A stretch of DNA of 64,000 bases from a virus. Lineage: Duplodnaviria > Caudoviricetes. Below the pieces are notes generated by a model. It did no database searches, was not told the origin of the DNA, and was given only the letters and a program-made list of their open reading frames with translations. Each line of letters starts with the position of its first letter. Position 1 is the first letter of the stretch. The DNA lies in the IMG/VR virus record IMGVR_UViG_3300024346_000003. One strand, given 5' to 3'. The position numbers and the translations under genes were made by a program. Below, in pieces: positions 1 to 31,371 of this stretch.

Positions 1-111
1 AAACATAATTTTCAGCAAAATTTATATACCAAATATAACTATAACTCATTGATTATTAATTTATTTTAGTGATGTGTTATGAGGGTTAGCCATTAGTTAT
101 AAGCAATGCTC

Positions 112-318
112 CTACCGCACATAACCTCTATCACACTTACACTCTACTTGTACTTGAATAGGATTTGGCACTCCGCAACATCCGTATTCTTTGTAGTTAC
201 CACAGCACTCCGCTTCGATTTCAATCGTGTAACCATTTCCACCACAAGCACTGCATATAACAGCACCTTGCAAAAATGCGGGGTCTTGTGGTTCATTGAT
301 GTTTTGTTCTTCGCTCAT
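112..318 (-). CDS. Cassette hypothetical protein with Cys-rich (Zn-finger-like) C-terminal module
   Basis: 68 aa; CSACGGNG...CKCDRG motifs resemble DnaJ-type CxxCxGxG; starts inside attC I. Confidence 0.6.
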   Translation of the reverse strand: MSEEQNINEPQDPAFLQGAVICSACGGNGYTIEIEAECCGNYKEYGCCGVPNPIQVQVECKCDRGYVR

Positions 319-388
319 AATTTTGTTGTTAAATTGAAAATTTGTTCTCCGTAATCCCGCACTTCTGCAAGCTGCCTTCCGTTATAAG
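255..388 (-). repeat. attC-like site I
   Basis: R'' CTTATAAC; arms GCAGCTTGCAGAAGTGCGGG / CCCGCATTTTTGCAAGGTGC; R' GTTATAT. Confidence 0.75.
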
Positions 389-391
389 AAA

Positions 392-733
392 TTATGCTTC
401 TCTTAGTGGTAGCCAAATTTCGCTATCTACAAAGCATTTTTCTTTACCACATAAAGCGTTGTACTTTTTAACATAATCTTCTGCCACTTCTCTTGTAGTA
501 CAAACAACGTCTTCGTCCTTATTGTCGTACCATCTTACAATCGCATAACTTCCAATAACATCACCTTGGCGCAATTTACGTAATTGTGCTACGTGATATA
601 ATTCTGCATATTCTTGCATTGCTTTAATTGCTTCTTCTCTTTCAATAACTCCATCTTTAGAAAAGTCAATATACTTGTTCAGTATCTCAAATCGTGAACC
701 AAGCAATACAATTTCTTTCTGTTCTTCTGTCAT
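392..733 (-). CDS. Cassette hypothetical protein
   Basis: 113 aa; starts inside attC H and crosses GTT as ...RKLRQGD-V-IGS. Confidence 0.6.
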   Translation of the reverse strand: MTEEQKEIVLLGSRFEILNKYIDFSKDGVIEREEAIKAMQEYAELYHVAQLRKLRQGDVIGSYAIVRWYDNKDEDVVCTTREVAEDYVKKYNALCGKEKCFVDSEIWLPLREA

Positions 734-783
734 AATTTTATTTTAATATTCGTAAACTTCGCCAAACTGTCAAACGTTATAAG
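553..783 (-). repeat. attC-like site H (long loop holding the N-terminal part of an ORF)
   Basis: R'' CTTATAAC; arms TTGGCGAAGTTTACG / CGTAAATTGCGCCAA; R' GTTATTG. Confidence 0.65.
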
Positions 784-1029
784 TCAGTTTGCTTTAAACA
801 AATGTAATCCACAATCACTACATTCATTTTCGTCTTTTTCCCATTCATAACGTGTACGAGGCTCACATTCGCAAACCGAACTTATAACAGTAGGTTGTTG
901 CAATTTACTTAATATTGCATCTGCGATAAGTTCAAAATTATCTTCGTGTATTGCTTTATCAGTGCAACTGCGGTCAACATAACCACTGTAATCATTTAAT
1001 AATTCTACAATTTCTTCCTTTGTTATCAT
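784..1029 (-). CDS. Cassette hypothetical protein, C-terminal Cys-rich module
   Basis: 81 aa; ...SKLQQPT-V-ISS; CECEP...CSDCG. Confidence 0.6.
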   Translation of the reverse strand: MITKEEIVELLNDYSGYVDRSCTDKAIHEDNFELIADAILSKLQQPTVISSVCECEPRTRYEWEKDENECSDCGLHLFKAN

Positions 1030-1078
1030 AATATTCCTTTTTAATCCGTAAACTTCACCAACCTACCTACCGTTAGCA
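882..1078 (-). repeat. attC-like site G (long loop)
   Basis: R'' TGCTAAC; arms GTAGGTTGGTGAAGTTTAC / GTAAATTGCAACAACCTAC; R' GTTATAA. Confidence 0.7.
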
Positions 1079-1085
1079 ACAATAG

Positions 1086-1361
1086 CTAATCAACCCTTCG
1101 TTCAATATCAATCCTGCCATTCATTGCGTTGGCGTTTGCAATGGTTTCTGCCTCACAATAGTCAGCACAATCAGCAATCCAATTACCATTTAAATACACT
1201 TGATAATATTCGGCAGAGCTACTGTTGCTAACATTGGCTATAAAATCATTGCCGTTTTTTAGGTCATTCCAAAATTCATCATCTAACATAATTCTGTTGT
1301 TTATTGAAAGTTTAAGCGTTTTAATCGGCAACGCTTCATAGCCCCGAAACGTTATGCTCAA
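1086..1361 (-). CDS. Cassette hypothetical protein (probable start about 1289)
   Basis: ...NGNDFIAN-V-SNS crosses R' of attC F. Confidence 0.5.
   Translation of the reverse strand: MSITFRGYEALPIKTLKLSINNRIMLDDEFWNDLKNGNDFIANVSNSSSAEYYQVYLNGNWIADCADYCEAETIANANAMNGRIDIERRVD
1226..1357 (-). repeat. attC-like site F
   Basis: R'' GCATAAC; arms GGCTATGAAGCGTTGCCG / CGGCAATGATTTTATAGCC; R' GTTAGCA. Confidence 0.75.
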
Positions 1362-1570
1362 GTGCTTTCAATTTCTATAACCTTTAACTCGTAGCGTTTC
1401 CCACCTAAAGAAAACTGAAACCGCTCGTCTGTCTTTAATAAGTTTTCAGCAACACTAGCAACAGCATCTTCAGTTACATCATGCTTTTCTCCAATCCACA
1501 TTCCTTTTTTAACTTTACCTACGTAAATTCTACTCGTTAAAGGTGAGCAACCTATTTTAAAATCTGACAT
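1358..1570 (-). CDS. Cassette hypothetical protein (self-contained)
   Basis: 70 aa ORF wholly between attC E and F. Confidence 0.6.
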   Translation of the reverse strand: MSDFKIGCSPLTSRIYVGKVKKGMWIGEKHDVTEDAVASVAENLLKTDERFQFSLGGKRYELKVIEIEST

Positions 1571-1612
1571 TTCTGTTAATTTATAAAGTTTATTTTTCTA
1601 TCTCGCACCTAA

Positions 1613-1666
1613 GCATAACAGCAAGTAAACCACATTAAAACGATGGTTTACTTGCAACCGTTAGCA
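1613..1666 (-). repeat. attC-like site E (compact, classical size)
   Basis: TGCTAAC-GGTTGCAAGTAAACCATCGTTTTAATGTGGTTTACTTGCT-GTTATGC; near-perfect hairpin. Confidence 0.85.
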
Positions 1667-1999
1667 GCAATGGCTAATATGCCTCACGTATTTGAAATTA
1701 TCTGACGTGCATTCAATACTACTTATACCGTCATTGTAGCTGAATTTAACGTGTATTACAAATTCAGTTGGTGCATATAAGCTATTCATTATAACTTCAA
1801 ATTGTTCTACCTTATAAATTTGTTTTTGTCCATAATGTAATACTTCTATCACATCTCCAACAGCTACAAATGACTTTATCAACTTGCCACTGCTGCTAAC
1901 ATCAGGTTTATTCAATGCGGGGTTCCTGCTCCCAAATAACCATTTTAGTAATTTCATATTTTTCGTTTTTAAATTAATTTTATCTGTAAAATCCCGCAC
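1661..1999 (-). CDS. Cassette hypothetical protein (probable start 1957)
   Basis: MKLLKWLFGSRNPALNKPD-V-SSS crosses R' of attC D. Confidence 0.55.
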   Translation of the reverse strand: MRDFTDKINLKTKNMKLLKWLFGSRNPALNKPDVSSSGKLIKSFVAVGDVIEVLHYGQKQIYKVEQFEVIMNSLYAPTEFVIHVKFSYNDGISSIECTSDNFKYVRHISHCC

Positions 2000-2023
2000 A
2001 AATAAACCTGCAAACGTTATAAG
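1894..2023 (-). repeat. attC-like site D
   Basis: R'' CTTATAAC; arms CAGGTTTATTTGTGCGGG / CCCGCATTGAATAAACCTG; R' GTTAGCA. Confidence 0.75.
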
Positions 2024-2226
2024 CCATTTAAGTAGTCACAATACATTTGTGCTTGTTTCTCGCTATTGTGTGGCATTATAATTACCTCTCTGCCTCTTGC
2101 ATCTAATATGGCTCGTTTCTGCTTTCTACCTAATCTGAAAGGTGGCACAAATACCTCCGAATCAAAACGGCTTATAACAGCACATTGGCAAAAAAGCCGT
2201 TTCATTTTCATAAGAATGTTTTTCAT
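2017..2226 (-). CDS. Cassette hypothetical protein
   Basis: MKNILMKMKRLFCQCA-V-ISR crosses R' of attC C. Confidence 0.55.
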   Translation of the reverse strand: MKNILMKMKRLFCQCAVISRFDSEVFVPPFRLGRKQKRAILDARGREVIIMPHNSEKQAQMYCDYLNGL

Positions 2227-2296
2227 AAGTATAAAATTTATCGTTTCTAATTAAGTTCTCGTTTCGGCTTCTTCGCCAATCTGCAAAACGTTAGCA
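2172..2296 (-). repeat. attC-like site C
   Basis: R'' TGCTAAC; arms GCAGATTGGCGAAGAAGCCG / CGGCTTTTTTGCCAATGTGC; R' GTTATAA. Confidence 0.75.
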
Positions 2297-2301
2297 GTAA
2301 T

Positions 2302-2607
2302 TCAAAGGTCAGTAACAAAATCAAATATAGACTTACTTATCCCACCTTCCTTATCTTTCTTGTCAACAGAACTACCGATAACAGTAGGTTGTCGCAATTT
2401 ACTTAGTTCTTCGTGATACGCTTCAGCATATTCCATCAAACTCAAAAGCAGATTTCCATCTACAACTTGCTTTTCGGCAAACTCTTTTAGGTCATTACTA
2501 TAATTCTTATCCCCTCTATCGCATAAATGATATTCAATCAATCTTTTGTGCAATTCAAAGTTTGCTTTTTCTGATTCTGCTTTTTTAATAAATTCTTCTT
2601 TTGTCAT
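2302..2607 (-). CDS. Cassette hypothetical protein
   Basis: ...SKLRQPT-V-IGS crosses R' of attC B. Confidence 0.6.
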   Translation of the reverse strand: MTKEEFIKKAESEKANFELHKRLIEYHLCDRGDKNYSNDLKEFAEKQVVDGNLLLSLMEYAEAYHEELSKLRQPTVIGSSVDKKDKEGGISKSIFDFVTDL

Positions 2608-2657
2608 AATCTTTTTATTTAATCCGTAAACTTCACCAACCTACCTAACGTTATGTA
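2375..2657 (-). repeat. attC-like site B (about 280 bp, loop holds most of an ORF)
   Basis: R'' TACATAAC; arms GTAGGTTGGTGAAGTTTAC / GTAAATTGCGACAACCTAC; R' GTTATCG. Confidence 0.65.
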
Positions 2658-2660
2658 CCA

Positions 2661-3014
2661 TTAAGGCGTAGTAGTTCTAATGAAGTTTGAAAAACCAGAT
2701 GCACTATAAAGTTTTTCATAGTCTTTTGGATTTTCTTCTTTCCATTTACGGTACATACTCATCCAAACTTTGTCATCAACTTTTTTAGTTTTACCATTCA
2801 ATACTTCATAAACAACATAATCCCAATTCCAATCTTTCATTATCGGAATAGTTGTTATTAATTTTTCCAATGTTTCAATTCTTAACGCCTTTTCAATATT
2901 ATGTGTTGCTTGTCCTTCGGCAACATAATATTTACCATCATCATTTAAAATAAAATATTTTTCCATCTTTGTAAATTTAAAGGTACATAACAAGGTGTAT
3001 ATGTTATACGCCAA
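2661..3014 (-). CDS. Cassette hypothetical protein (probable start 2966, MEKYF)
   Basis: ORF between attC A and B. Confidence 0.55.
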   Translation of the reverse strand: MAYNIYTLLCTFKFTKMEKYFILNDDGKYYVAEGQATHNIEKALRIETLEKLITTIPIMKDWNWDYVVYEVLNGKTKKVDDKVWMSMYRKWKEENPKDYEKLYSASGFSNFIRTTTP

Positions 3015-3080
3015 TGAAGTGTCGTACTTAATTTAAAATTTGTGGTTAGGCGTACAACACATATACCCAACCGTTATAAG
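2985..3080 (-). repeat. attC-like site A (first site of the array)
   Basis: R'' CTTATAAC; arms GGTATATGTGTTGTACGCC / GGCGTATAACATATACACC; R' GTTATGT. Confidence 0.8.
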
Positions 3081-3097
3081 TAATATTATTTTTGTTT

Positions 3098-3313
3098 TTA
3101 AATTAGTTTAATTTTTGGATTTTGAATTTCTGGAATACACAACTTCCAATCTTTACCATACATCGGTGATACAGTTCCAGCAAATGGAGTTTTCTTATAA
3201 AATATTAGATACTTTTTATCATCTTCCATTTTTGTTATTTCTTCTACTATATCAAAATCCAAATCGAAGAATCTGATTACTTCATCACATTTATGTCTAT
3301 TTATTCTTTTCAT
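3098..3313 (-). CDS. Hypothetical protein
   Basis: 71 aa ORF in a co-oriented run, directly upstream of attC A. Confidence 0.5.
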   Translation of the reverse strand: MKRINRHKCDEVIRFFDLDFDIVEEITKMEDDKKYLIFYKKTPFAGTVSPMYGKDWKLCIPEIQNPKIKLI

Positions 3314-3325
3314 AATTGTAATTTT

Positions 3326-3859
3326 TTAATCCCACCACCTATTAATTTTTTTTGCCATGATTCTAAATACTAAATCCTTAGCTTTTTCTTGTCTTAAGTC
3401 ACCCATAATCATAGCAACTAATTTTTTATCATTATGGTCAGTAGTAAATCTTTTTTGATTTTCTTTAATAAAGATAATTGCTCGTTTATGCCATGTTGGA
3501 AACTTTGTAAAATACGAATCAAAATCTTCACTGATAGTATTAATATTTATTTCACTATAACCTGGTTTATCTTCAATATCTGTAAATACCATTTCACTTT
3601 CATGATAATCAGTATATTCTGAATCGTAATAAGAGTCTTTAACTTTATTAATTAATTCAGCACAAATTAACATATCTTTAGCATCTTCTTGTGACCTAGT
3701 ATGTCTATCCTTCCTACCGATATAATTAGATTGTCTCCTTAATTTAAATTCAATAATCTGATATATAAACCAAGAGTCCCAATCCCTATCTTTCCAAATT
3801 ATAGGTAACCAAGCCCATAGATTACTGATTCCCGTTTTTAAGGTTCTAAATATTCGCAT
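3326..3859 (-). CDS. Hypothetical phage protein
   Basis: 177 aa ORF, tight packing, coding-like composition. Confidence 0.65.
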   Translation of the reverse strand: MRIFRTLKTGISNLWAWLPIIWKDRDWDSWFIYQIIEFKLRRQSNYIGRKDRHTRSQEDAKDMLICAELINKVKDSYYDSEYTDYHESEMVFTDIEDKPGYSEININTISEDFDSYFTKFPTWHKRAIIFIKENQKRFTTDHNDKKLVAMIMGDLRQEKAKDLVFRIMAKKINRWWD

Positions 3860-4099
3860 TTAATTATTATTTCTATGGTAATCTTTTATTTTATCAAGTA
3901 ATGCTTGATTGAAATTTGTAAACCATTTTGGGTTACACTCTTTTGGTGTTATATGTGTTAGTTCACCACATTTATAAGTAGAACGAATTCCACCTTTATA
4001 GTATCTAATAGAACCATCAGCTTCAATAATTTGAGTTGGTTCATCTTTGTGTTCAAAACCCATTACTGAATCGAAAACTAAAAAACTGTTTCTTGACAT
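3860..4099 (-). CDS. Hypothetical protein
   Basis: 79 aa, abuts neighbours. Confidence 0.5.
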   Translation of the reverse strand: MSRNSFLVFDSVMGFEHKDEPTQIIEADGSIRYYKGGIRSTYKCGELTHITPKECNPKWFTNFNQALLDKIKDYHRNNN

Positions 4100-4101
4100 T
4101 T

Positions 4102-4338
4102 TTACTTAATTTTAAATTTAATATTATCGAATCCTGAGAATCCGTTTAACTTATCATGCGTTGTTAACATAAACATACCAATTAGTTGAGATATGGCAAC
4201 GCAAAGCATCTCATTGGTGTATTCGGTTGGTGGGTATATTAAAACCTCGTTAGATAGGTCCGTAGTGTATTCAAATGTAAAACCATTGAATTCATCTAGT
4301 ACTCTTTGTTTTCTTTCAACTTCGGTTAAATATTTCAT
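4102..4338 (-). CDS. Hypothetical protein
   Basis: 78 aa, TATATTTG box at 4343-4350 upstream. Confidence 0.55.
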   Translation of the reverse strand: MKYLTEVERKQRVLDEFNGFTFEYTTDLSNEVLIYPPTEYTNEMLCVAISQLIGMFMLTTHDKLNGFSGFDNIKFKIK

Positions 4339-4376
4339 ATTACAAATATACTAATAATTTATTAGTTAACCAAATT

Positions 4377-4568
4377 TTATTGAAACATTTTCTTTAATTC
4401 AGCTAAATCAGCATCTCTACCTTGTACATTACCGTAGTAAAGATATGATGAACAGTCTTCATCAAACTCAATAGAGTTACCACTGATTCTACCTTTAGTT
4501 GGTTCCCAACCTTTCGCTACCAATTTGCTAGCTTCTTTTCTCAATTCTAAATTTACAAACGTATACAT
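4377..4568 (-). CDS. Hypothetical protein
   Basis: 63 aa, TATATTTG box at 4582-4589 upstream. Confidence 0.55.
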   Translation of the reverse strand: MYTFVNLELRKEASKLVAKGWEPTKGRISGNSIEFDEDCSSYLYYGNVQGRDADLAELKKMFQ

Positions 4569-4639
4569 AACTAATTGTTTTATTGTTTATACAAATATAG
4601 GTATTATTTATTAATTAACCAAATTTAATTAGAACATTT

Positions 4640-5329
4640 TTAATCTCGACCAATATATTCATCATCATTAGGCTGTCTGTAATTGTAATTACCTCTACCA
4701 TGTTCATGTTTTTCAATCTCATCATCTAAATCCATCATTTCTTCTTGATTCTGGTCCTCAACACTTTCCACGTCATCCATCACACCATCACCAGGCTTTG
4801 TAATATATTGTGTTGCTATCACTGGACTTAATGATTTACCTATTGGAATTAATATTTTATTTGATAAAAATAAAATAAAAGCAAATGCAGCTAATCTAAT
4901 AATACCATGTTGTATTTCATTGAACAATCTATTACCAAAAAACATTAGGAGTATATTTAATATAACTAACGCTGTATTAATATAACATAATTTGTCAACA
5001 AACTCAGCACCAAACATTTTATAAAAGAATAACCAACCAACAAATCCGAAGTGGTAATCAATCATAAAATATACATAACCAAAAATTGCGAATATGTTGA
5101 CTCTAACTCGGTCCAATTGCATTTGTTCCCAGTTGCCAAATAAAAGTAAAAATGCATATACAAATAGCATTATTGTTGGGAATATAGATGCTAGCACACC
5201 CAATAATAATATCATAACAATGAAGGTACCACCATTTACCATTATTAAATCACTAAACGTTAATTTGTTTACCCCTATAGTACCACCGAAGCCGAATACT
5301 TGGTAAAATTTGATTCCATCATTTTCCAT
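4640..5329 (-). CDS. Multi-pass membrane protein with acidic C-terminal tail
   Basis: Several hydrophobic segments in 229 aa. Confidence 0.65.
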   Translation of the reverse strand: MENDGIKFYQVFGFGGTIGVNKLTFSDLIMVNGGTFIVMILLLGVLASIFPTIMLFVYAFLLLFGNWEQMQLDRVRVNIFAIFGYVYFMIDYHFGFVGWLFFYKMFGAEFVDKLCYINTALVILNILLMFFGNRLFNEIQHGIIRLAAFAFILFLSNKILIPIGKSLSPVIATQYITKPGDGVMDDVESVEDQNQEEMMDLDDEIEKHEHGRGNYNYRQPNDDEYIGRD

Positions 5330-5423
5330 ATCTCTTATTTTTATAAAACAAAGATAAGATAAATAAATAACATTTCCAAATATTATGACAAAAAAAAATC
5401 CACTTTCGTGGATTTATTAATTT

Positions 5424-5999
5424 TTAACCTACTTTACCCCCGCCAGGATATTTAGATAATACTGTTCTAACTCTATCTACTTCATCTTTTGTGAATCGAT
5501 AAGTACCACCTTCTTCATTCTGTTCTTGATTTAATTTTTTGTATGGTAATCTAGTATAGATTTCTTTTTCGCTAAATCCAGCTTCCCTGAATATACCAAC
5601 TTGTTTGATTGAATCATGTTTTTTAAAGAAGTTTATGATATCATCATATTCAACTTTAGTTTCACCATCACCCTCTTTATCATCGTTGGCACCATCACGT
5701 TTGATTTTAGGTTCTTCTTTATTATCTTCGAATAAACCATTCAATGATTCTCTTAACATTTTTTTAATATCAGACTCACCCAGATTTTTAAGGGCCTTTT
5801 CTTTTGTTACCCAACCATGACCCTCTTTTTCATCAAGAATGTATTTTAATACATCTATTATTTCTTCTTTACTTGAAATTGAATCTCTAATAACTGACTT
5901 TAAATCGTTATATAATTTATTATTTTGGATATCTTCTTTAATGATTTTTTGTTCCAAATTACCCAAGTCTTGTTTGTTAAGTTTGATTATGTTTTTCAT
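5424..5999 (-). CDS. Hypothetical protein (possible virion-associated)
   Basis: 191 aa; TATTTAT box upstream; terminator hairpin at about 5393-5418. Confidence 0.55.
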   Translation of the reverse strand: MKNIIKLNKQDLGNLEQKIIKEDIQNNKLYNDLKSVIRDSISSKEEIIDVLKYILDEKEGHGWVTKEKALKNLGESDIKKMLRESLNGLFEDNKEEPKIKRDGANDDKEGDGETKVEYDDIINFFKKHDSIKQVGIFREAGFSEKEIYTRLPYKKLNQEQNEEGGTYRFTKDEVDRVRTVLSKYPGGGKVG

Positions 6000-6055
6000 A
6001 ATTAGTGTATTATTTTTATTAATAAATATCTATAAGTTATTAAAAATACAAATAA

Positions 6056-6078
6056 AAAAACCCCTTTCGGGGTTTTGA
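6056..6078 (-). terminator. Intrinsic terminator after sigma factor
   Basis: AACCCC-GAAA-GGGGTT followed by a U tract. Confidence 0.8.
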
Positions 6079-6966
6079 TTAATTTTGAAACAATTCCATT
6101 TTAATACCTCTTCGATTCATGTTTATTTTCATGATTTTTAAGGCTTTCTTTCTAACTTGCCTAACACCTTCTCGACTCATATCAACTTTATACCCAATTT
6201 CAACTAAACTTAATGGTTCATGGCCATTTAACCCGTAGGTTAAAGTTATGATTTCTTTTTGTCTACAATCCAGTGTTGTCATGATTGAATCTAATACTGA
6301 TTGTAAGTCATTATTATTAACTAAATGGTCAGCACTTAATGAATTATCATTTTCAAGTACATCAATCATTGAACCACTATCTGAATCACTAGTGAATGGT
6401 GTGTCTAATGATGTGATTGTCATACTATCTAAACTTAATAACATATTAATGTTATCAAAATTCAAATCAGAACCCTCAAGACCAACTAAATCTTGAGCAG
6501 CTGTTGGTCTTTGATTGATTTGTTCAAGACCAGACATCTCTCTTTTAAGTTTGTTTAATTCAGTAATTCTATTTATTGGAATTCTAACAGTTCTAGAATA
6601 CTTGTTCATATAATCTGTCACACTTTTTCTTATATACCAAACAGCATAAGATATGAATTTGAATCCACGACTTGGGTCGAATCTTTGAGCGGCTTCAATT
6701 AAACCATAGTTACCCTCAGTAACCAATTCTTCAAGTGGTGACTTACCATTAACATATTGTTTAGCTACACTAATTACAAACTTTAAATTTCTCTCAATCA
6801 ATTCATTTAAAGCATCAGTATCCCCATTGAAAGCTTTAATCGCACATTCATATTCTTCATCTGCGGTTTCAAATGATTTGATTGCTCTAACATCCATTAA
6901 GTATTGAGCAAATGCTTTTGATGATGTTCTGTCTGTAATTTTTTGGCTAATTTTTAATTGTCTCAT
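6079..6966 (-). CDS. Sigma-70 family RNA polymerase sigma factor (group 1/2-like)
   Basis: NLKFVISVAKQY, GLIEAAQRFDPSRGFKFISYAVWYIR (region 2), SREGVRQV (region 4). Confidence 0.92.
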   Translation of the reverse strand: MRQLKISQKITDRTSSKAFAQYLMDVRAIKSFETADEEYECAIKAFNGDTDALNELIERNLKFVISVAKQYVNGKSPLEELVTEGNYGLIEAAQRFDPSRGFKFISYAVWYIRKSVTDYMNKYSRTVRIPINRITELNKLKREMSGLEQINQRPTAAQDLVGLEGSDLNFDNINMLLSLDSMTITSLDTPFTSDSDSGSMIDVLENDNSLSADHLVNNNDLQSVLDSIMTTLDCRQKEIITLTYGLNGHEPLSLVEIGYKVDMSREGVRQVRKKALKIMKINMNRRGIKMELFQN

Positions 6967-6975
6967 ATATTTATT

Positions 6976-7452
6976 TTAAATTTTTACGTTAAGTTCTCTT
7001 TCTAAATCACGTTTTTTAATCGAATCTCGTTTATCGTGAAGTTTTTTACCTCTGCATAGTGATATTTCAATTTTTATTAAACCTTTGTCGGTAATAATAA
7101 CACTAATTGGTACTATTGTCAACCCTTTTTGCTCTACATTTTCATTTAATTTTATTATTTCTTTTTTGTTCAACAATAATTTCCTTAACCTGGTTGGTTC
7201 ATGATTCGTATGAATGCCACTTTGTTTATATTCAGATATATTCATACCCTTAATAAACAGTTCGTCATTTTTGATGTAACAATACCCCTCAGAGATTGAT
7301 ACCTTATGATTACGTATTGATTTTACTTCGCTACCAATTAGCTTGATACCAGCGGTTAGTTTATCAATAAACTCATATTCAAATGAGGCTTTCTTATTTC
7401 GTATTATAACTTCCATAATTAATTTTAACAAAGGTAAGGATAATAAAGACAT
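6976..7452 (-). CDS. smpB: SsrA-binding protein SmpB
   Basis: NKKASFEYE, AGIKLIGSEVKSIR, HEPTRLRKLLL, RGKKLHDKR. Confidence 0.95.
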   Translation of the reverse strand: MSLLSLPLLKLIMEVIIRNKKASFEYEFIDKLTAGIKLIGSEVKSIRNHKVSISEGYCYIKNDELFIKGMNISEYKQSGIHTNHEPTRLRKLLLNKKEIIKLNENVEQKGLTIVPISVIITDKGLIKIEISLCRGKKLHDKRDSIKKRDLERELNVKI

Positions 7453-7477
7453 TATCCAAATATTTTTAATGTTTTTT

Positions 7478-7912
7478 TTATTTAAAATGTAATGTGGATG
7501 TTTCAGTAATCCTAATCATCTCATTTTCAAACCAATCGTCTATAGTGGTTACTAAAAATTCTATATCATAATGTTTATTTAATTCAGATATAATATTATT
7601 AGTGTTAACAATTTTGCCAGACATTTTTGCAATAACCCAATTTGTGGGACCTAATGTAACTTTATATTTGTATTTTAAAAAATCTAATACATCGATTTTT
7701 GCATTTTTACCATTAACTGTATACCAATTCAACATAAAATCATATAGTAATTCACCATCGACTTTATCTATTGCTATTGAATCATTAATATTTCTATATA
7801 ATATGGCAAATGAAATACTTTTTTCATCTAGTATATATTTGTATTTAAATTTTGAGCCAGTAAATAGGTAATGTTTATTAACATACCATAAAACAAATTC
7901 GGATTCGGTCAT
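7478..7912 (-). CDS. Hypothetical protein
   Basis: 144 aa, co-oriented and overlapping neighbour. Confidence 0.5.
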   Translation of the reverse strand: MTESEFVLWYVNKHYLFTGSKFKYKYILDEKSISFAILYRNINDSIAIDKVDGELLYDFMLNWYTVNGKNAKIDVLDFLKYKYKVTLGPTNWVIAKMSGKIVNTNNIISELNKHYDIEFLVTTIDDWFENEMIRITETSTLHFK

Positions 7913-8193
7913 AAACCTTTAAGTATGTTATTAATTTCTATACAAGTTTCGTAATCTTCAATGCGTTCAAAATAAGCAATTGAAAAGTTTAAGTGTGATG
8001 ACCAATCTGATTTTTCAACATTTATAGTAATGACATCATCATTAACCATTAGGTTGGCAACATTGGCTATTTTTTCATTATTTTTTATTGAGTTTTTAAT
8101 TTCATTTAGAGTTTCAGTAAATAATAAATCTTTTTCATTTTGAATGAAATCAATAATTTCCCTATAACTTTCAAATTCAAGATTTATAGCCAC
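7909..8193 (-). CDS. Hypothetical protein
   Basis: 94 aa, GTG start. Confidence 0.5.
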   Translation of the reverse strand: MAINLEFESYREIIDFIQNEKDLLFTETLNEIKNSIKNNEKIANVANLMVNDDVITINVEKSDWSSHLNFSIAYFERIEDYETCIEINNILKGL

Positions 8194-8372
8194 TAATTTA
8201 AATTAAAATCAACCACGTTATCATCATCACCATCATTATTTGATATATAAAGACCTTCAATTTCCTCACCAAATTCATCTAATACACTGACATCTATCTT
8301 ACCATCACCATAATACGTGATATGTACGATGTATTCGCCAAAATCAAATTCTTTGGTAATAGGTTTGCTCAT
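8193..8372 (-). CDS. Small acidic hypothetical protein (59 aa, not in ORF track)
   Basis: MSKPITKEFDFGEYIVHITYYGDGKIDVSVLDEFGEEIEGLY...; fills the gap exactly. Confidence 0.55.
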   Translation of the reverse strand: MSKPITKEFDFGEYIVHITYYGDGKIDVSVLDEFGEEIEGLYISNNDGDDDNVVDFNLN

Positions 8373-8373
8373 A

Positions 8374-8757
8374 TTAATAAATATCTAGCACACTCATGTT
8401 AATTTCTTTTTTTTCTAAATCTACTGACTTAATAATAATTTTTATTTCATCACCTAATCTCATTTTTCTACCAGTTATTTCTTCAATAAAACAATGGTTT
8501 TTAACATCAGGTGTCCAAGTTCTATAACCTATATCTGATGATTTAACTAACCCCTCACAACCATTTTCTGGTATTTCAACGAATATACCATAGTCTTGAA
8601 CTGAAGTTATTACACCAGTATATATTTTACCTAATTTATCCATCAAGTATTGACATTGCTTATACTTAATGCTATCTCTACTAGCTTTTTGTGCTACCTT
8701 TTCTCTTTGAGAAAGATGTGCCGCCATTTTTTCTAATTCATCAGATTTATACTTCAT
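8374..8757 (-). CDS. rnr: RNase R C-terminal fragment (end of RNB domain + S1 domain)
   Basis: ELEKMAAHLSQREKVAQKASRD...YTGVITSVQDYGIFVEIPENGCEGLV; own TATATTTG box at 8762-8769. Confidence 0.85.
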   Translation of the reverse strand: MKYKSDELEKMAAHLSQREKVAQKASRDSIKYKQCQYLMDKLGKIYTGVITSVQDYGIFVEIPENGCEGLVKSSDIGYRTWTPDVKNHCFIEEITGRKMRLGDEIKIIIKSVDLEKKEINMSVLDIY

Positions 8758-8822
8758 TTTGCAAATATACTAATTTAAAATCAAATTATCAATATTTTTA
8801 ATATAAAAAAAGATATTTATAA

Positions 8823-9866: not shown

Positions 9867-11392
9867 CCATCGTTACCCAATACACCACTAATTATTCTAT
9901 GGAATATTAAATCAGGATATCTTCTGATTGGACTAGTTGTATGCATATAAAACTTAACACCTAAACCATAATGCCCTATATTTTTAGTTTGATAATTAGC
10001 TTTGGTCATACATCTAACTACTAAATTATTAATTATATTTTCTTCTGGTGTATCTTTAACTTCCTTAAGTAACCCATTTAGTTTATCCTTAATCTTATTA
10101 TCATCAGATAAGTCTAATTTATAACCAATCAATTCTATAAATGTTTTTAGTGATTCTAATCTAGTTGGGTCTGGTTCATCATGTGTTCTATGCAATGTTA
10201 CAACACCTTTTTTTGTTACGTATTCACAAACTTGTCTGTTTGTTAAAACCATAAACTCCTCAATCAACCAATTCGATTCTTTTTGCTCAGTAAAATAAAC
10301 ACCAAGTGGATTTCCATTTAAATCTAAATCAAACTTGACTTCAGAACCTCTAAATTTTAATGAATTTTTATCACTTCTAATTTTTCTTATCTTACTTGCG
10401 TATCGATTCAAATCTAATATAGCTCTTTTTAAGTCTTTATTATAGATATCACCACCTTCAATTACTTTTTGAACTTCAGTATATGTTAATCGATAATTTG
10501 AATTGATTATACCACGACAAAACTTTTCTTTAATTACTTTAGCATTTTGGTCAAGTGTGAATATAAATGAATAAACTAATTTATCAGTATGTGGGTTAAG
10601 TGAACAAAGATTGTTACTTAATTTTTCTGGTAACATTGGTACAACCCTATCAACTAAATAAACCGATGTACCACGTTTATATGCTTCATCATCTATAGCT
10701 GTATTTGGTTTTACATAATAGGATACATCCGCAATATGAACAGCAACTTCAATATTACCATCAACCCATTGTACTGATAAGGCATCATCTAAATCTTTAG
10801 CTGTTTCACCATCAATAGTAAAAGTTAATATGTCACGCATATCTAATCTTTTAGCTATTTCTTTTTCTGAAATAACATCTGATATTAATTCAGATTCATT
10901 AATCACATTTTGTTTAAATTCATATGGTAGATTATATTCTTCTAATATACTATGAATTTCAACATCATTATTACCTGATTGACCTAATACTCTGATTACT
11001 TCACCATTAGGGTTTTTCTGATTATCACCCCAAGTCGTCATTTTCACAACAACCTTTTCACCATTAGATGCACCCATTGTTTTATTTAATGGGATGAATA
11101 TATCAATATTCATTCGTTTATTATCTGGTATTAGAAAAGCATGCTTTAATGATATTTGCATAGTACCAACGAACTCAGTCTTAAATCGCTCTATAATCTC
11201 AATTACCTTACCTTCAAATTGACCATTATCCGTTTTGGTCAATTCAACTTTAACTATATCTAAATGCAATGCTTTGTTTACACTACCTTTATTGATATGT
11301 ATACCCTTTTTTATATCTTGGTTTGTAACATACCCTGAACCGAACCCCGTAAGACCAATTTCACCAGTTACAATATCTCCTTTTTTAAACAT
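9854..11392 (-). CDS. rnr: RNase R N-terminal fragment (cold-shock/OB domains + RNB catalytic domain)
   Basis: TIDGETAKDLDDALS, VHIADVSYYV, RGTSVYLVDRVVPMLP, HTTSPIRRYPDLIFHR. Confidence 0.92.
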   Translation of the reverse strand: MFKKGDIVTGEIGLTGFGSGYVTNQDIKKGIHINKGSVNKALHLDIVKVELTKTDNGQFEGKVIEIIERFKTEFVGTMQISLKHAFLIPDNKRMNIDIFIPLNKTMGASNGEKVVVKMTTWGDNQKNPNGEVIRVLGQSGNNDVEIHSILEEYNLPYEFKQNVINESELISDVISEKEIAKRLDMRDILTFTIDGETAKDLDDALSVQWVDGNIEVAVHIADVSYYVKPNTAIDDEAYKRGTSVYLVDRVVPMLPEKLSNNLCSLNPHTDKLVYSFIFTLDQNAKVIKEKFCRGIINSNYRLTYTEVQKVIEGGDIYNKDLKRAILDLNRYASKIRKIRSDKNSLKFRGSEVKFDLDLNGNPLGVYFTEQKESNWLIEEFMVLTNRQVCEYVTKKGVVTLHRTHDEPDPTRLESLKTFIELIGYKLDLSDDNKIKDKLNGLLKEVKDTPEENIINNLVVRCMTKANYQTKNIGHYGLGVKFYMHTTSPIRRYPDLIFHRIISGVLGNDGYVG

Positions 11393-31229: not shown

Positions 31230-31305
31230 TGGCGGACGTGACGGGAGTTGAACCCGCTCCGAACTGCGTGACAGGCAGACATCTTAACCGTTTGACCTCA
31301 CATCC
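31230..31305 (-). tRNA. tRNA-Asp(GTC), CCA encoded
   Basis: TCTGC-CTGTCAC-GCAGT. Confidence 0.88.
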
Positions 31306-31371
31306 AAAGTTACTTTTTCTTTCTCAGCTATTCAGCGTCTAGGAAATATAAAAGTATAAAACCCTACATCG

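Follow-up and report, generated by a model that had tools for sequence, protein, structure and literature searches.

What kind of element is the series of small genes at the start of a 64,000-nucleotide (nt) stretch of phage DNA, and how are its genes exchanged? The stretch, hereafter the window, comes from IMG/VR virus record IMGVR_UViG_3300024346_000003 (Duplodnaviria; Caudoviricetes) and was analyzed over its whole length. Integrons are the textbook gene-capture device of bacteria, and their integrase is defined by an extra helix. The first-pass annotation of the window had read the locus as an integron-type array, built of cassettes bounded by hairpins and without a recombinase in the vicinity, which is borne out here, and had likened it to the clusters of attC sites lacking integron integrases (CALIN), which is not. 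On comparative sequence evidence, positions 96–3071 represent, with a probability of about 0.8, nine mobile one-gene cassettes in an integron-like system of Bacteroidota phages.

The array consists of nine hairpin sites and nine one-gene cassettes at 96–3071, with all genes on the minus strand, as is every gene in positions 1–8800. The region 96–3080 alternates between cassette bodies (96–261, 381–559, 776–888, 1072–1232, 1351–1619, 1660–1900, 2016–2178, 2290–2382 and 2650–2991) and hairpin segments, nine in number and 40–267 nt each. On the plus strand, each body opens with GTTA and 5–12 further nt and closes with these nt in reverse complement, followed by TAAC, forming inverted end copies of 9–16 nt within each cassette. 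The five end pairs that the first-pass annotation had picked out are all present where it had placed them. Its nine hairpins are likewise real, but the start of a tenth that it saw at position 96 is the end of the array and has no hairpin; there, the last TAAC abuts a flank conserved in the related contigs L017 and L018.

The end pairs and the hairpins stand out from the rest of the window. A scan of the 64 kb returned 16 GTTA...TAAC pairs in which 11 or more of 14 bases are complementary, and 10 of them form a single contiguous non-overlapping chain at 76–2991. Mononucleotide shuffling of the whole window left ∼13 pairs, that is ∼0.6 per 3 kb. The pair at 76–125, which overlaps cassette 1 and runs into the terminal flank, is probably a chance match. 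A purpose-built site finder returned exactly the nine hairpins as the sole strong sites in the window (arm duplex of −12.9 to −21.7 kcal/mol), compared with 1–6 weak hits in shuffled windows, both strands summed. A chance origin of the array was ruled out by these shuffled-window counts, for the end pairs and for the sites. An Rfam search of 1–4000 gave four chance-level matches, none of them recombination-related.

On the gene-sense (minus) strand, all nine inter-body segments fold into imperfect hairpins closed by TAAC and GTTA. The fold z-scores lie between −2.1 and −6.9 for seven of the hairpins and amount to −1.7 and −1.0 for the other, weaker two. Read in gene direction, a hairpin and the body that follows it hold exactly one complete open reading frame (ORF) of 67–113 residues. 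Each hairpin lies 5′ of its gene, and in seven of the nine cassettes the ATG is located inside the hairpin loop. In these seven start-holding hairpins, the 3′ stem arm is coding sequence, and the GTT of the closing box is in frame as a valine codon after 16–75 codons. The stop codon lies 1–16 nt ahead of the TAAC that ends the body; in cassettes 6 and 7, the TAA of this box serves as the stop. The genes point toward the terminal flank. On the plus strand, the order of flank, body, hairpin, body and hairpin is the classical integron geometry, but with the genes inverted.

The site design was derived from 322 unique sites in related arrays. On the gene strand, a site comprises 5′-TAAC, a G, approximately three unpaired nt, an imperfect stem, a loop of 11 to ∼230 nt, the returning stem, a T and GTTA. 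The consensus is M-TAAC-G-K-T-T ... T-GTTA-K, to which the nine sites of the window conform. The G directly after TAAC is found in 307 of the 322 sites and the T directly before GTTA in 309, and the two form a G·T wobble on the gene strand and an A·C mismatch on the opposite strand. The unpaired spacer measures 4 nt on one side and 0–1 nt on the other, as it also does in all nine window sites. The gene strand folds more stably than its complement at 307 of the 322 sites, a figure inflated by the finder having selected pairing on that strand. The leading core of each cassette, as the first-pass annotation had pointed out, matches its own trailing inverse core. This match spans 9–16 nt in the window and extends to the larger set, in which the 10 nt past GTTA agree with the far end of their own cassette at a mean of 7.57 of 10 positions, against 3.37 for the other side of the same hairpin and 3.29 for random pairs.

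Short hairpins form a distinct type with the invariant 11-nt loop TCGTTTTAATG. Around this loop, compensatory changes occur in 9 of the 12 stem pairs, and the observed score is reached by 0 of 500 shuffles, which points to selection on the fold; the caveat on the finder's choice of strand applies here too. Hairpins with the loop lie at 1620–1659 in the window, at 11234–11281 in L017, at ∼1420–1470 and 2390–2440 in Cellulophaga phage phi17:1 (L001) and in the site P12002L_attC1. The loop is common to freshwater and marine phages, and the stems covary freely; this conservation suggests a protein contact or a second function. Integron recombination cuts the folded bottom strand within the AAC of the 5′ box. 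By analogy, the substrate in the phage arrays would be the gene strand, cut in TAAC.

The enzyme associated with such arrays was identified in relatives of the phage. The marker gene at 3326–3859 (177 residues) has 256 confirmed relatives in viral contigs. A PF00589 search of the contigs of 18 marker-gene relatives gave one match, in G009, in which a nine-site array runs straight into a gene on the same strand for a 268-residue tyrosine recombinase (PF00589, E 6e-36, plus PF13495). Three complete relatives (G012, G020 and G021) gave no PF00589 match and contain fewer than two sites in the 20-kb loci around the marker gene. The site finder was run on both strands of 80 viral loci that encode relatives of the G009 recombinase (30–100% identity), covering 388 kb upstream and 473 kb downstream. 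All 276 sites that it located lie upstream of the recombinase gene and on the same strand as that gene; the downstream sequence and the opposite strand gave 0. Of the 80 loci, 64 include 1.5 kb or more of upstream sequence, and 59 of these contain at least one site. The last cassette of these arrays is followed by a terminal site, in which TAAC is joined to TAYWATATRTA (39 unique junctions), and the recombinase gene starts ∼36–120 nt further on the same strand. Of 67 recombinase sequences, at least 97% retain each of the catalytic residues R, K, H, R, H and Y.

More distant relatives of the recombinase, at 37–40% identity, are encoded by Cellulophaga phage Ingeline and Polaribacter phage Freya. 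The backbones of Freya_10, Freya_8 and Freya_6 (L258–L260) are 99.9–100% identical and differ just upstream of the integrase. Downstream, Freya_10 and Freya_6 agree at 99.9% identity, with homology restarting right after an AAC, 64 nt before the integrase start. The last unit of Freya_10 is composed of a hairpin holding a gene start and a body with matching ends. The strict TAAC/GTTA finder returned 0 sites in Freya and a relaxed AAC/GTT finder returned one, which indicates that the Freya clade uses a looser box. Genome length varies between 43,978 and 48,920 bp among ten cultured Freya isolates.

The phage under study lacks the enzyme in the region analyzed. The first-pass annotation had looked for an integrase upstream of the array (3.1–8 kb), which is the wrong side; in relatives the recombinase gene follows the array in gene direction, a position that here falls beyond window position 1. 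Searched in all frames, the 64-kb window encodes no protein of this recombinase family; the best match has an E-value of 0.29, and the positive control scores 451 bits. Pfam matches in seven of the ORFs at 3.3–9.9 kb comprise a sigma factor, SmpB and a lysozyme and include no recombinase family. The counterpart of the region before window position 1, the 5 kb past the array end in L018, contains small genes and no recombinase. In the terminal flank of the window (1–95, minus strand), which occupies the attI-like position beside the last cassette, homology to L018 and L017 begins exactly after the last TAAC, and only the first TA of TAYWATATRTA is kept. Several L018 genes past the array have homologues downstream of the recombinase in L097, L105, L106 and L120-123. 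Because genes past the array match genes located behind the recombinase in relatives, the recombinase gene has most likely been lost from this neighborhood.

Loss of the enzyme raises the question of whether the array is a frozen relic that was built by the recombinase system and has been immobile in this phage since the enzyme and the motif disappeared, its differences from relatives being older or the product of ordinary recombination. The missing recombinase, the terminal flank without the near-invariant ATATRT core and the eight identical sites common to L017 and L018 all fit such a relic. Yet L017 and L018, which have the same degenerate flank and are identical through those eight sites, differ by two whole hairpin-plus-body units inserted exactly at TAAC beside the conserved flank. 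Contigs from other samples branch away from the window at the boxes in many cases, and one of them, from run X2, lacks exactly cassette 2 (380–774) and has nine shared letters at the joint. Across three runs, contigs diverge from the window at 96, 380/385, 2293 (six contigs), 2654 and 3069, all on the TAAC side of a hairpin, and two contigs diverge on the GTTA side, both at 2174. Run joints with sides of 20–23 letters were disregarded, and uncovered bins carry no meaning in this comparison. Moreover, the recombinase searches behind the relic argument cover the window and 5 kb of L018, out of a phage genome of ∼300 kb. A frozen relic is unlikely on these grounds, although it deserves serious weight.

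Comparison with relatives further delineates the unit of exchange. Four contigs are 94.6–96.6% identical to the window from 6000 down to 3300, where the homology ends. Past 3300, these contigs and the window have only scattered modules in common, located elsewhere in the array or at lower identity. The window and L017 both contain cassette 1 (97.6% identity, same terminal position), the body of cassette 5 (99.6% identical to L017 10965–11239, flanked there by different hairpins) and the hairpin of cassette 9 (75% identical to L017 11674–11770, at a different array position). The arrays of close relatives contain 4–10 sites, which share the design of the window sites, and their cassette ends are complementary in the same chain-like fashion. 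In comparisons of the window with L015, L017 and L018, cassette content thus differs among close relatives, and a cassette order fixed in all relatives, which would have told against the reading of the first-pass annotation, is not observed. G001, the nearest related record and a fragment of 40 kb, does not cover the array. Since the whole-unit differences and the contig divergence points fall there, the exchange point is chiefly the TAAC box that opens each hairpin at its 5′ end, as read on the gene strand. In an all-against-all block comparison, blocks begin at TAAC in 38 of 61 cases and their ends are often undefined; this result is mixed, so the unit of exchange rests mainly on the pairwise cases.

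A second alternative places the hairpins at the RNA level, as terminators, stabilizers or translation controls, and ascribes the shuffling to homologous recombination of repeated modules, in the manner of promoter-early stem-loop (PeSL) cassettes. The hairpins do lie on the transcribed strand and enclose start codons, and the array contains paralogous hairpins, as illustrated by the arms of cassettes 8 and 3. A contig of run X4 (depth of ∼163) joins 729 in the hairpin of cassette 2 to 1026 in that of cassette 3. Both positions fall at gene starts that are homologous to each other, and the joint looks like ordinary homologous recombination between paralogous hairpins beside the box-specific events. 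However, promoter-like sites of the sigma-70 type (14 versus 16.9 expected) and intrinsic-terminator-like sites (3 versus 1.9 expected) are not enriched, in scans with phage-specific promoters outside their range. TAnnTTTG motifs number just four on the gene strand in 3.4 kb. A regulatory function offers no role for the cassette-specific complementary ends, does not account for breakpoints at a 4-nt box between otherwise unrelated sequences and leaves both the 276:0 association with the recombinase and the conserved terminal site unexplained. We regard it as improbable.

In a third alternative, the one toward which the first-pass annotation leaned, the locus is a true integron fragment of the CALIN type, with ordinary attC sites served by a classical IntI of the host or of another element. 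The imperfect hairpins closed by AAC and GTT and the matching ends of each cassette are compatible with this view, and a short hairpin of the present family, P12002L_attC1, was called attC by HattCI in Qi et al. 2023 (PMC9892861, Table S3). P12002L_attC1 is, however, the only one of six phage sites in that study without a verified IntI1 junction (PMC9892861), and complete integrons are almost absent from Bacteroidetes according to IntegronFinder 2.0 (PMC9024848). The identity of the array enzyme argues in the same direction. Among curated families, the recombinase of the relatives falls into the Xer/IntI group without reaching the cut-off of any; the XerA-type model NF040815 scores best, at 184 bits (cut-off 220), and the integron integrase model TIGR02249 scores 151 bits in two stretches (cut-off 265). 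The recombinase has 29 residues where Vibrio cholerae IntIA (2a3v) has 77. It aligns in one piece to Pyrococcus XerA, whose structure is the best solved match (PDB 4a8e, E 1e-37). The I2 helix in the integrase-specific segment is the innovation behind single-strand recombination according to Escudero et al. 2020 (PMC7790495).

In a search of 185,579 bacterial species genomes, the nearest relatives of the recombinase are at most 48% identical, mostly on contigs of metagenome-assembled genomes (MAGs), and sites occur upstream in just two MAG contigs. Flavobacterium genomes contain relatives at just 27–30% identity. The host-supplied integrase that the first-pass annotation had allowed for is unlikely, because the nearest bacterial relatives do not exceed 48% identity. 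The orientation of the genes and the gene starts within the sites are also unlike those of classical cassettes. With the arrays of relatives tied to a 268-residue Xer-like recombinase below the IntI cut-off, the locus falls outside the CALIN definition, and service by IntI is very improbable. Movement of palindrome-associated mini-elements by an IS200/IS605-type HUH single-strand transposase, to which the hairpin and conserved tetranucleotide of each site and the folded-strand bias might point, deserves hardly any credence, as the sole conserved neighbor of the arrays is a tyrosine recombinase, Pfam searches of 10 array-region ORFs and of seven of the ORFs at 3.3–9.9 kb gave no transposase or HUH nuclease family, and the bodies have inverted ends of 9–16 nt, which IS200/IS605-type elements are not known to have.

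The favored explanation remains a set of mobile cassettes in an integron-like phage system, for which the following mechanism is proposed. The small Xer-like tyrosine recombinase, encoded at the array end in relatives, would bind the gene-sense strand in its folded form and carry out strand exchange within the TAAC box at the 5′ end of the hairpin. Circles consisting of a hairpin and a body would be excised and re-inserted either between cassettes or at the terminal site, at the joint of TAAC and TAYWATATRTA just before the recombinase gene. Pairing of the two cassette ends within such a circle may extend the box stem, which would account for their kept complementarity. A rarer additional exchange may take place at the GTTA box. 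In the phage studied here, the array would change only with an enzyme from elsewhere in the genome or from a co-infecting phage.

Several observations weigh against the mobile-cassette interpretation or narrow it. The site finder selects pairing on one strand, which inflates both the paired percentage and the difference in stability between the strands. Single-stranded DNA folding, the strand used and the exact cut are argued by analogy with integrons. The run data consist mostly of short contigs rather than reads. The adjacency of recombinase and array may in principle reflect a lysogeny integrase with its attP, and a recombinase may possibly be encoded outside the 64-kb window, elsewhere in the ∼300-kb phage. 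Finally, identical bodies lie between unrelated hairpins (1349–1623 compared with L017; L101 compared with L139, 100% over 315 nt). A single crossover point is insufficient for such cases, which indicates that exchange sometimes occurs at the GTTA box too. Many hairpins are common to different arrays and have unrelated bodies on both sides.

Exchange at the GTTA box bears on the proteins encoded. The GTT is in frame in 102 of the 173 start-codon-holding hairpins of related arrays, and with the GTT in frame in so many of them, exchange at this box can yield in-frame chimeras. The proteins of cassettes 2, 3 and 8 (392–733, 784–1029 and 2302–2607, minus strand) have in common the end of their hairpin-encoded N-terminal part (...KLRQ-x-x-VI...), and their body-encoded C-terminal parts are unrelated. 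These three proteins are candidates for in-frame module chimeras made at the GTT box. A wider proposal, which we put forward tentatively and at somewhat less than even odds, is that Bacteroidota phages have their own integron analogue, in which a compact Xer-like recombinase handles hairpins without the I2 helix, occasional exchange at the GTT box also swaps N- and C-terminal modules and recombinase-less arrays are kept in flux by co-infecting phages.

The nine cassettes, all on the minus strand, are described here from the terminal flank outward. Cassette 1 (96–380) combines the body at 96–261 with a hairpin at 262–380 and encodes a 68-residue protein (ORF 318→112); its ends match at 12 of 14 positions (13 of 15 over 15 nt), and its hairpin (z = −3.6) holds the ATG, with the GTT in frame after 19 codons. 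The cassette 1 protein (112–318) contains nine cysteines and a DnaJ-type CxxCxGxG motif and has no family match. Cassette 2 (381–775; body 381–559, hairpin 560–775, ORF 733→392, 113 residues) was delimited by end pairing and fold. In cassette 3 (776–1071; body 776–888, hairpin 889–1071, ORF 1029→784, 81 residues), the arms at 890–908 and 1048–1066 are 84% complementary, and one hairpin arm has an exact 23-nt match in two other viral contigs, in each case inside a short array. Cassette 4 (1072–1350; body 1072–1232, hairpin 1233–1350, ORF 1289→1086, 67 residues) has ends that match at 15 of 16 positions. Its hairpin has a counterpart of 79% identity in Cellulophaga phage phi17:1 (marine, 38.8 kb), and the conserved block spans box to box in this alignment, with poorly conserved flanks.

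Cassette 5 (1351–1659) contains the body at 1351–1619 and the short hairpin at 1620–1659 (z = −6.9), and its 70-residue product (ORF 1570→1358) matches Pfam DUF7446 (E 1.8e-16). Cassettes 6 (1660–2015; body 1660–1900, hairpin 1901–2015, ORF 1957→1661, 98 residues) and 7 (2016–2289; body 2016–2178, hairpin 2179–2289, ORF 2226→2017, 69 residues) have ends that match at 14 of 15 and 13 of 14 positions, respectively. Cassette 8 (2290–2649; body 2290–2382, ORF 2607→2302, 101 residues), delimited by end pairing and fold, has the longest hairpin of the array (2383–2649, 267 nt). Cassette 9 (2650–3071), farthest from the insertion end, comprises the body at 2650–2991 and the hairpin at 2992–3071 (z = −3.0) and encodes 101 residues (ORF 2966→2661); its ends match at 14 of 15 positions. 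The distal border of the array (3072–3313, minus strand) is formed by the box that closes the first hairpin (3072–3080) and a 71-residue ORF (3313→3098) without a hairpin of its own. In close relatives, a different short ORF ending in the same box takes this position. Pfam and PHROGs searches of the nine cassette proteins gave no match for eight.

Outside the array, a full-length SmpB (PF01668, E 3e-53) is encoded at 6976–7452 on the minus strand. SmpB is the protein partner of transfer-messenger RNA. The adjoining gene, at 6079–6966 on the minus strand, encodes a sigma-70-type factor with regions 2 and 4. Further away, the 74 nt at 31233–31306 are 100% identical to the 635-kb uncultured huge phage LR745206.

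If the proposal is correct, a widespread phage system with integron logic and a helix-less recombinase would constitute a second and independent solution to cassette exchange, or perhaps the ancestral one, and the origin of integrons would become testable. Such a system would also account for the exchange of many small orphan genes among large Bacteroidota phages, and cultured phage–host pairs exist for experiments in Polaribacter phage Freya and Cellulophaga phage Ingeline. The window adds the recombinase-less state, a clear case with natural variants cut at the box, in which arrays persist and still vary once the enzyme is gone.

A literature search for this combination of hairpin cassettes and Xer-like recombinase found no description. 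By its sequence features, the array is best placed as a recombinase-less member of the phage hairpin-cassette arrays with Xer-like recombinase, having their site design and turnover at the TAAC box and lacking their terminal site and recombinase. Four known systems invite comparison. The array enzyme has the size and domain layout of Xer recombinases and archaeal XerA and aligns to XerA-type proteins continuously, but its score lies below the XerA family cut-off (184 versus 220 bits). Xer acts on one double-stranded dif site and resolves dimers, whereas the array enzyme stands at the end of multi-site hairpin arrays in phages. The PeSL cassettes of T4-type phages, reportedly described by Arbiol, Comeau, Krisch and colleagues in 2010, are said to be shuffled by homologous recombination between repeats. 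They resemble the present array in that small phage genes of a variable region are split by stem-loop modules and relatives differ by whole modules. The phage array differs in its breaks at a 4-nt box, in the private complementary ends of its cassettes and in the recombinase and terminal site attached to such arrays.

The nearest published report describes 17 integrase-less attC clusters in phages (Qi, Rajabal, Ghaly, Tetu and Gillings 2023, PMC9892861). These clusters, too, were predicted in virulent phages without an integrase, and the site P12002L_attC1 of a Polaribacter phage is a short hairpin with the same boxes, spacer and invariant loop. The report differs in having relied on integron tools, which gave two sites per phage, and in having assayed these with IntI1; it makes no mention of long arrays, of gene starts within the sites, of the terminal site or of the Xer-like recombinase. 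Integrons themselves, sedentary chromosomal integrons and CALINs included, resemble the phage system in the order of a Xer/IntI-group tyrosine recombinase, a terminal insertion site and a cassette array, as seen in the relatives, in imperfect hairpin sites with AAC/GTT closure and an unpaired spacer, in cassettes whose leading box agrees more closely with the trailing box of the same cassette than with the opposite box of the hairpin and in the existence of recombinase-less arrays. The two systems differ in the enzyme, which in the relatives lacks the IntI-specific segment with the I2 helix and scores below the IntI cut-offs, and in the hosts, which are phages of a phylum almost without integrons. 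They also differ in cassette layout. Classical attC sites measure ∼57–141 bp and lie 3′ of a promoterless gene reading away from attI, whereas the phage cassette genes are inverted and preceded by hairpins of 40–267 nt that usually contain the start codon, and the cassette ends are complementary over 9–16 nt in the phage arrays compared with 7 in integrons.

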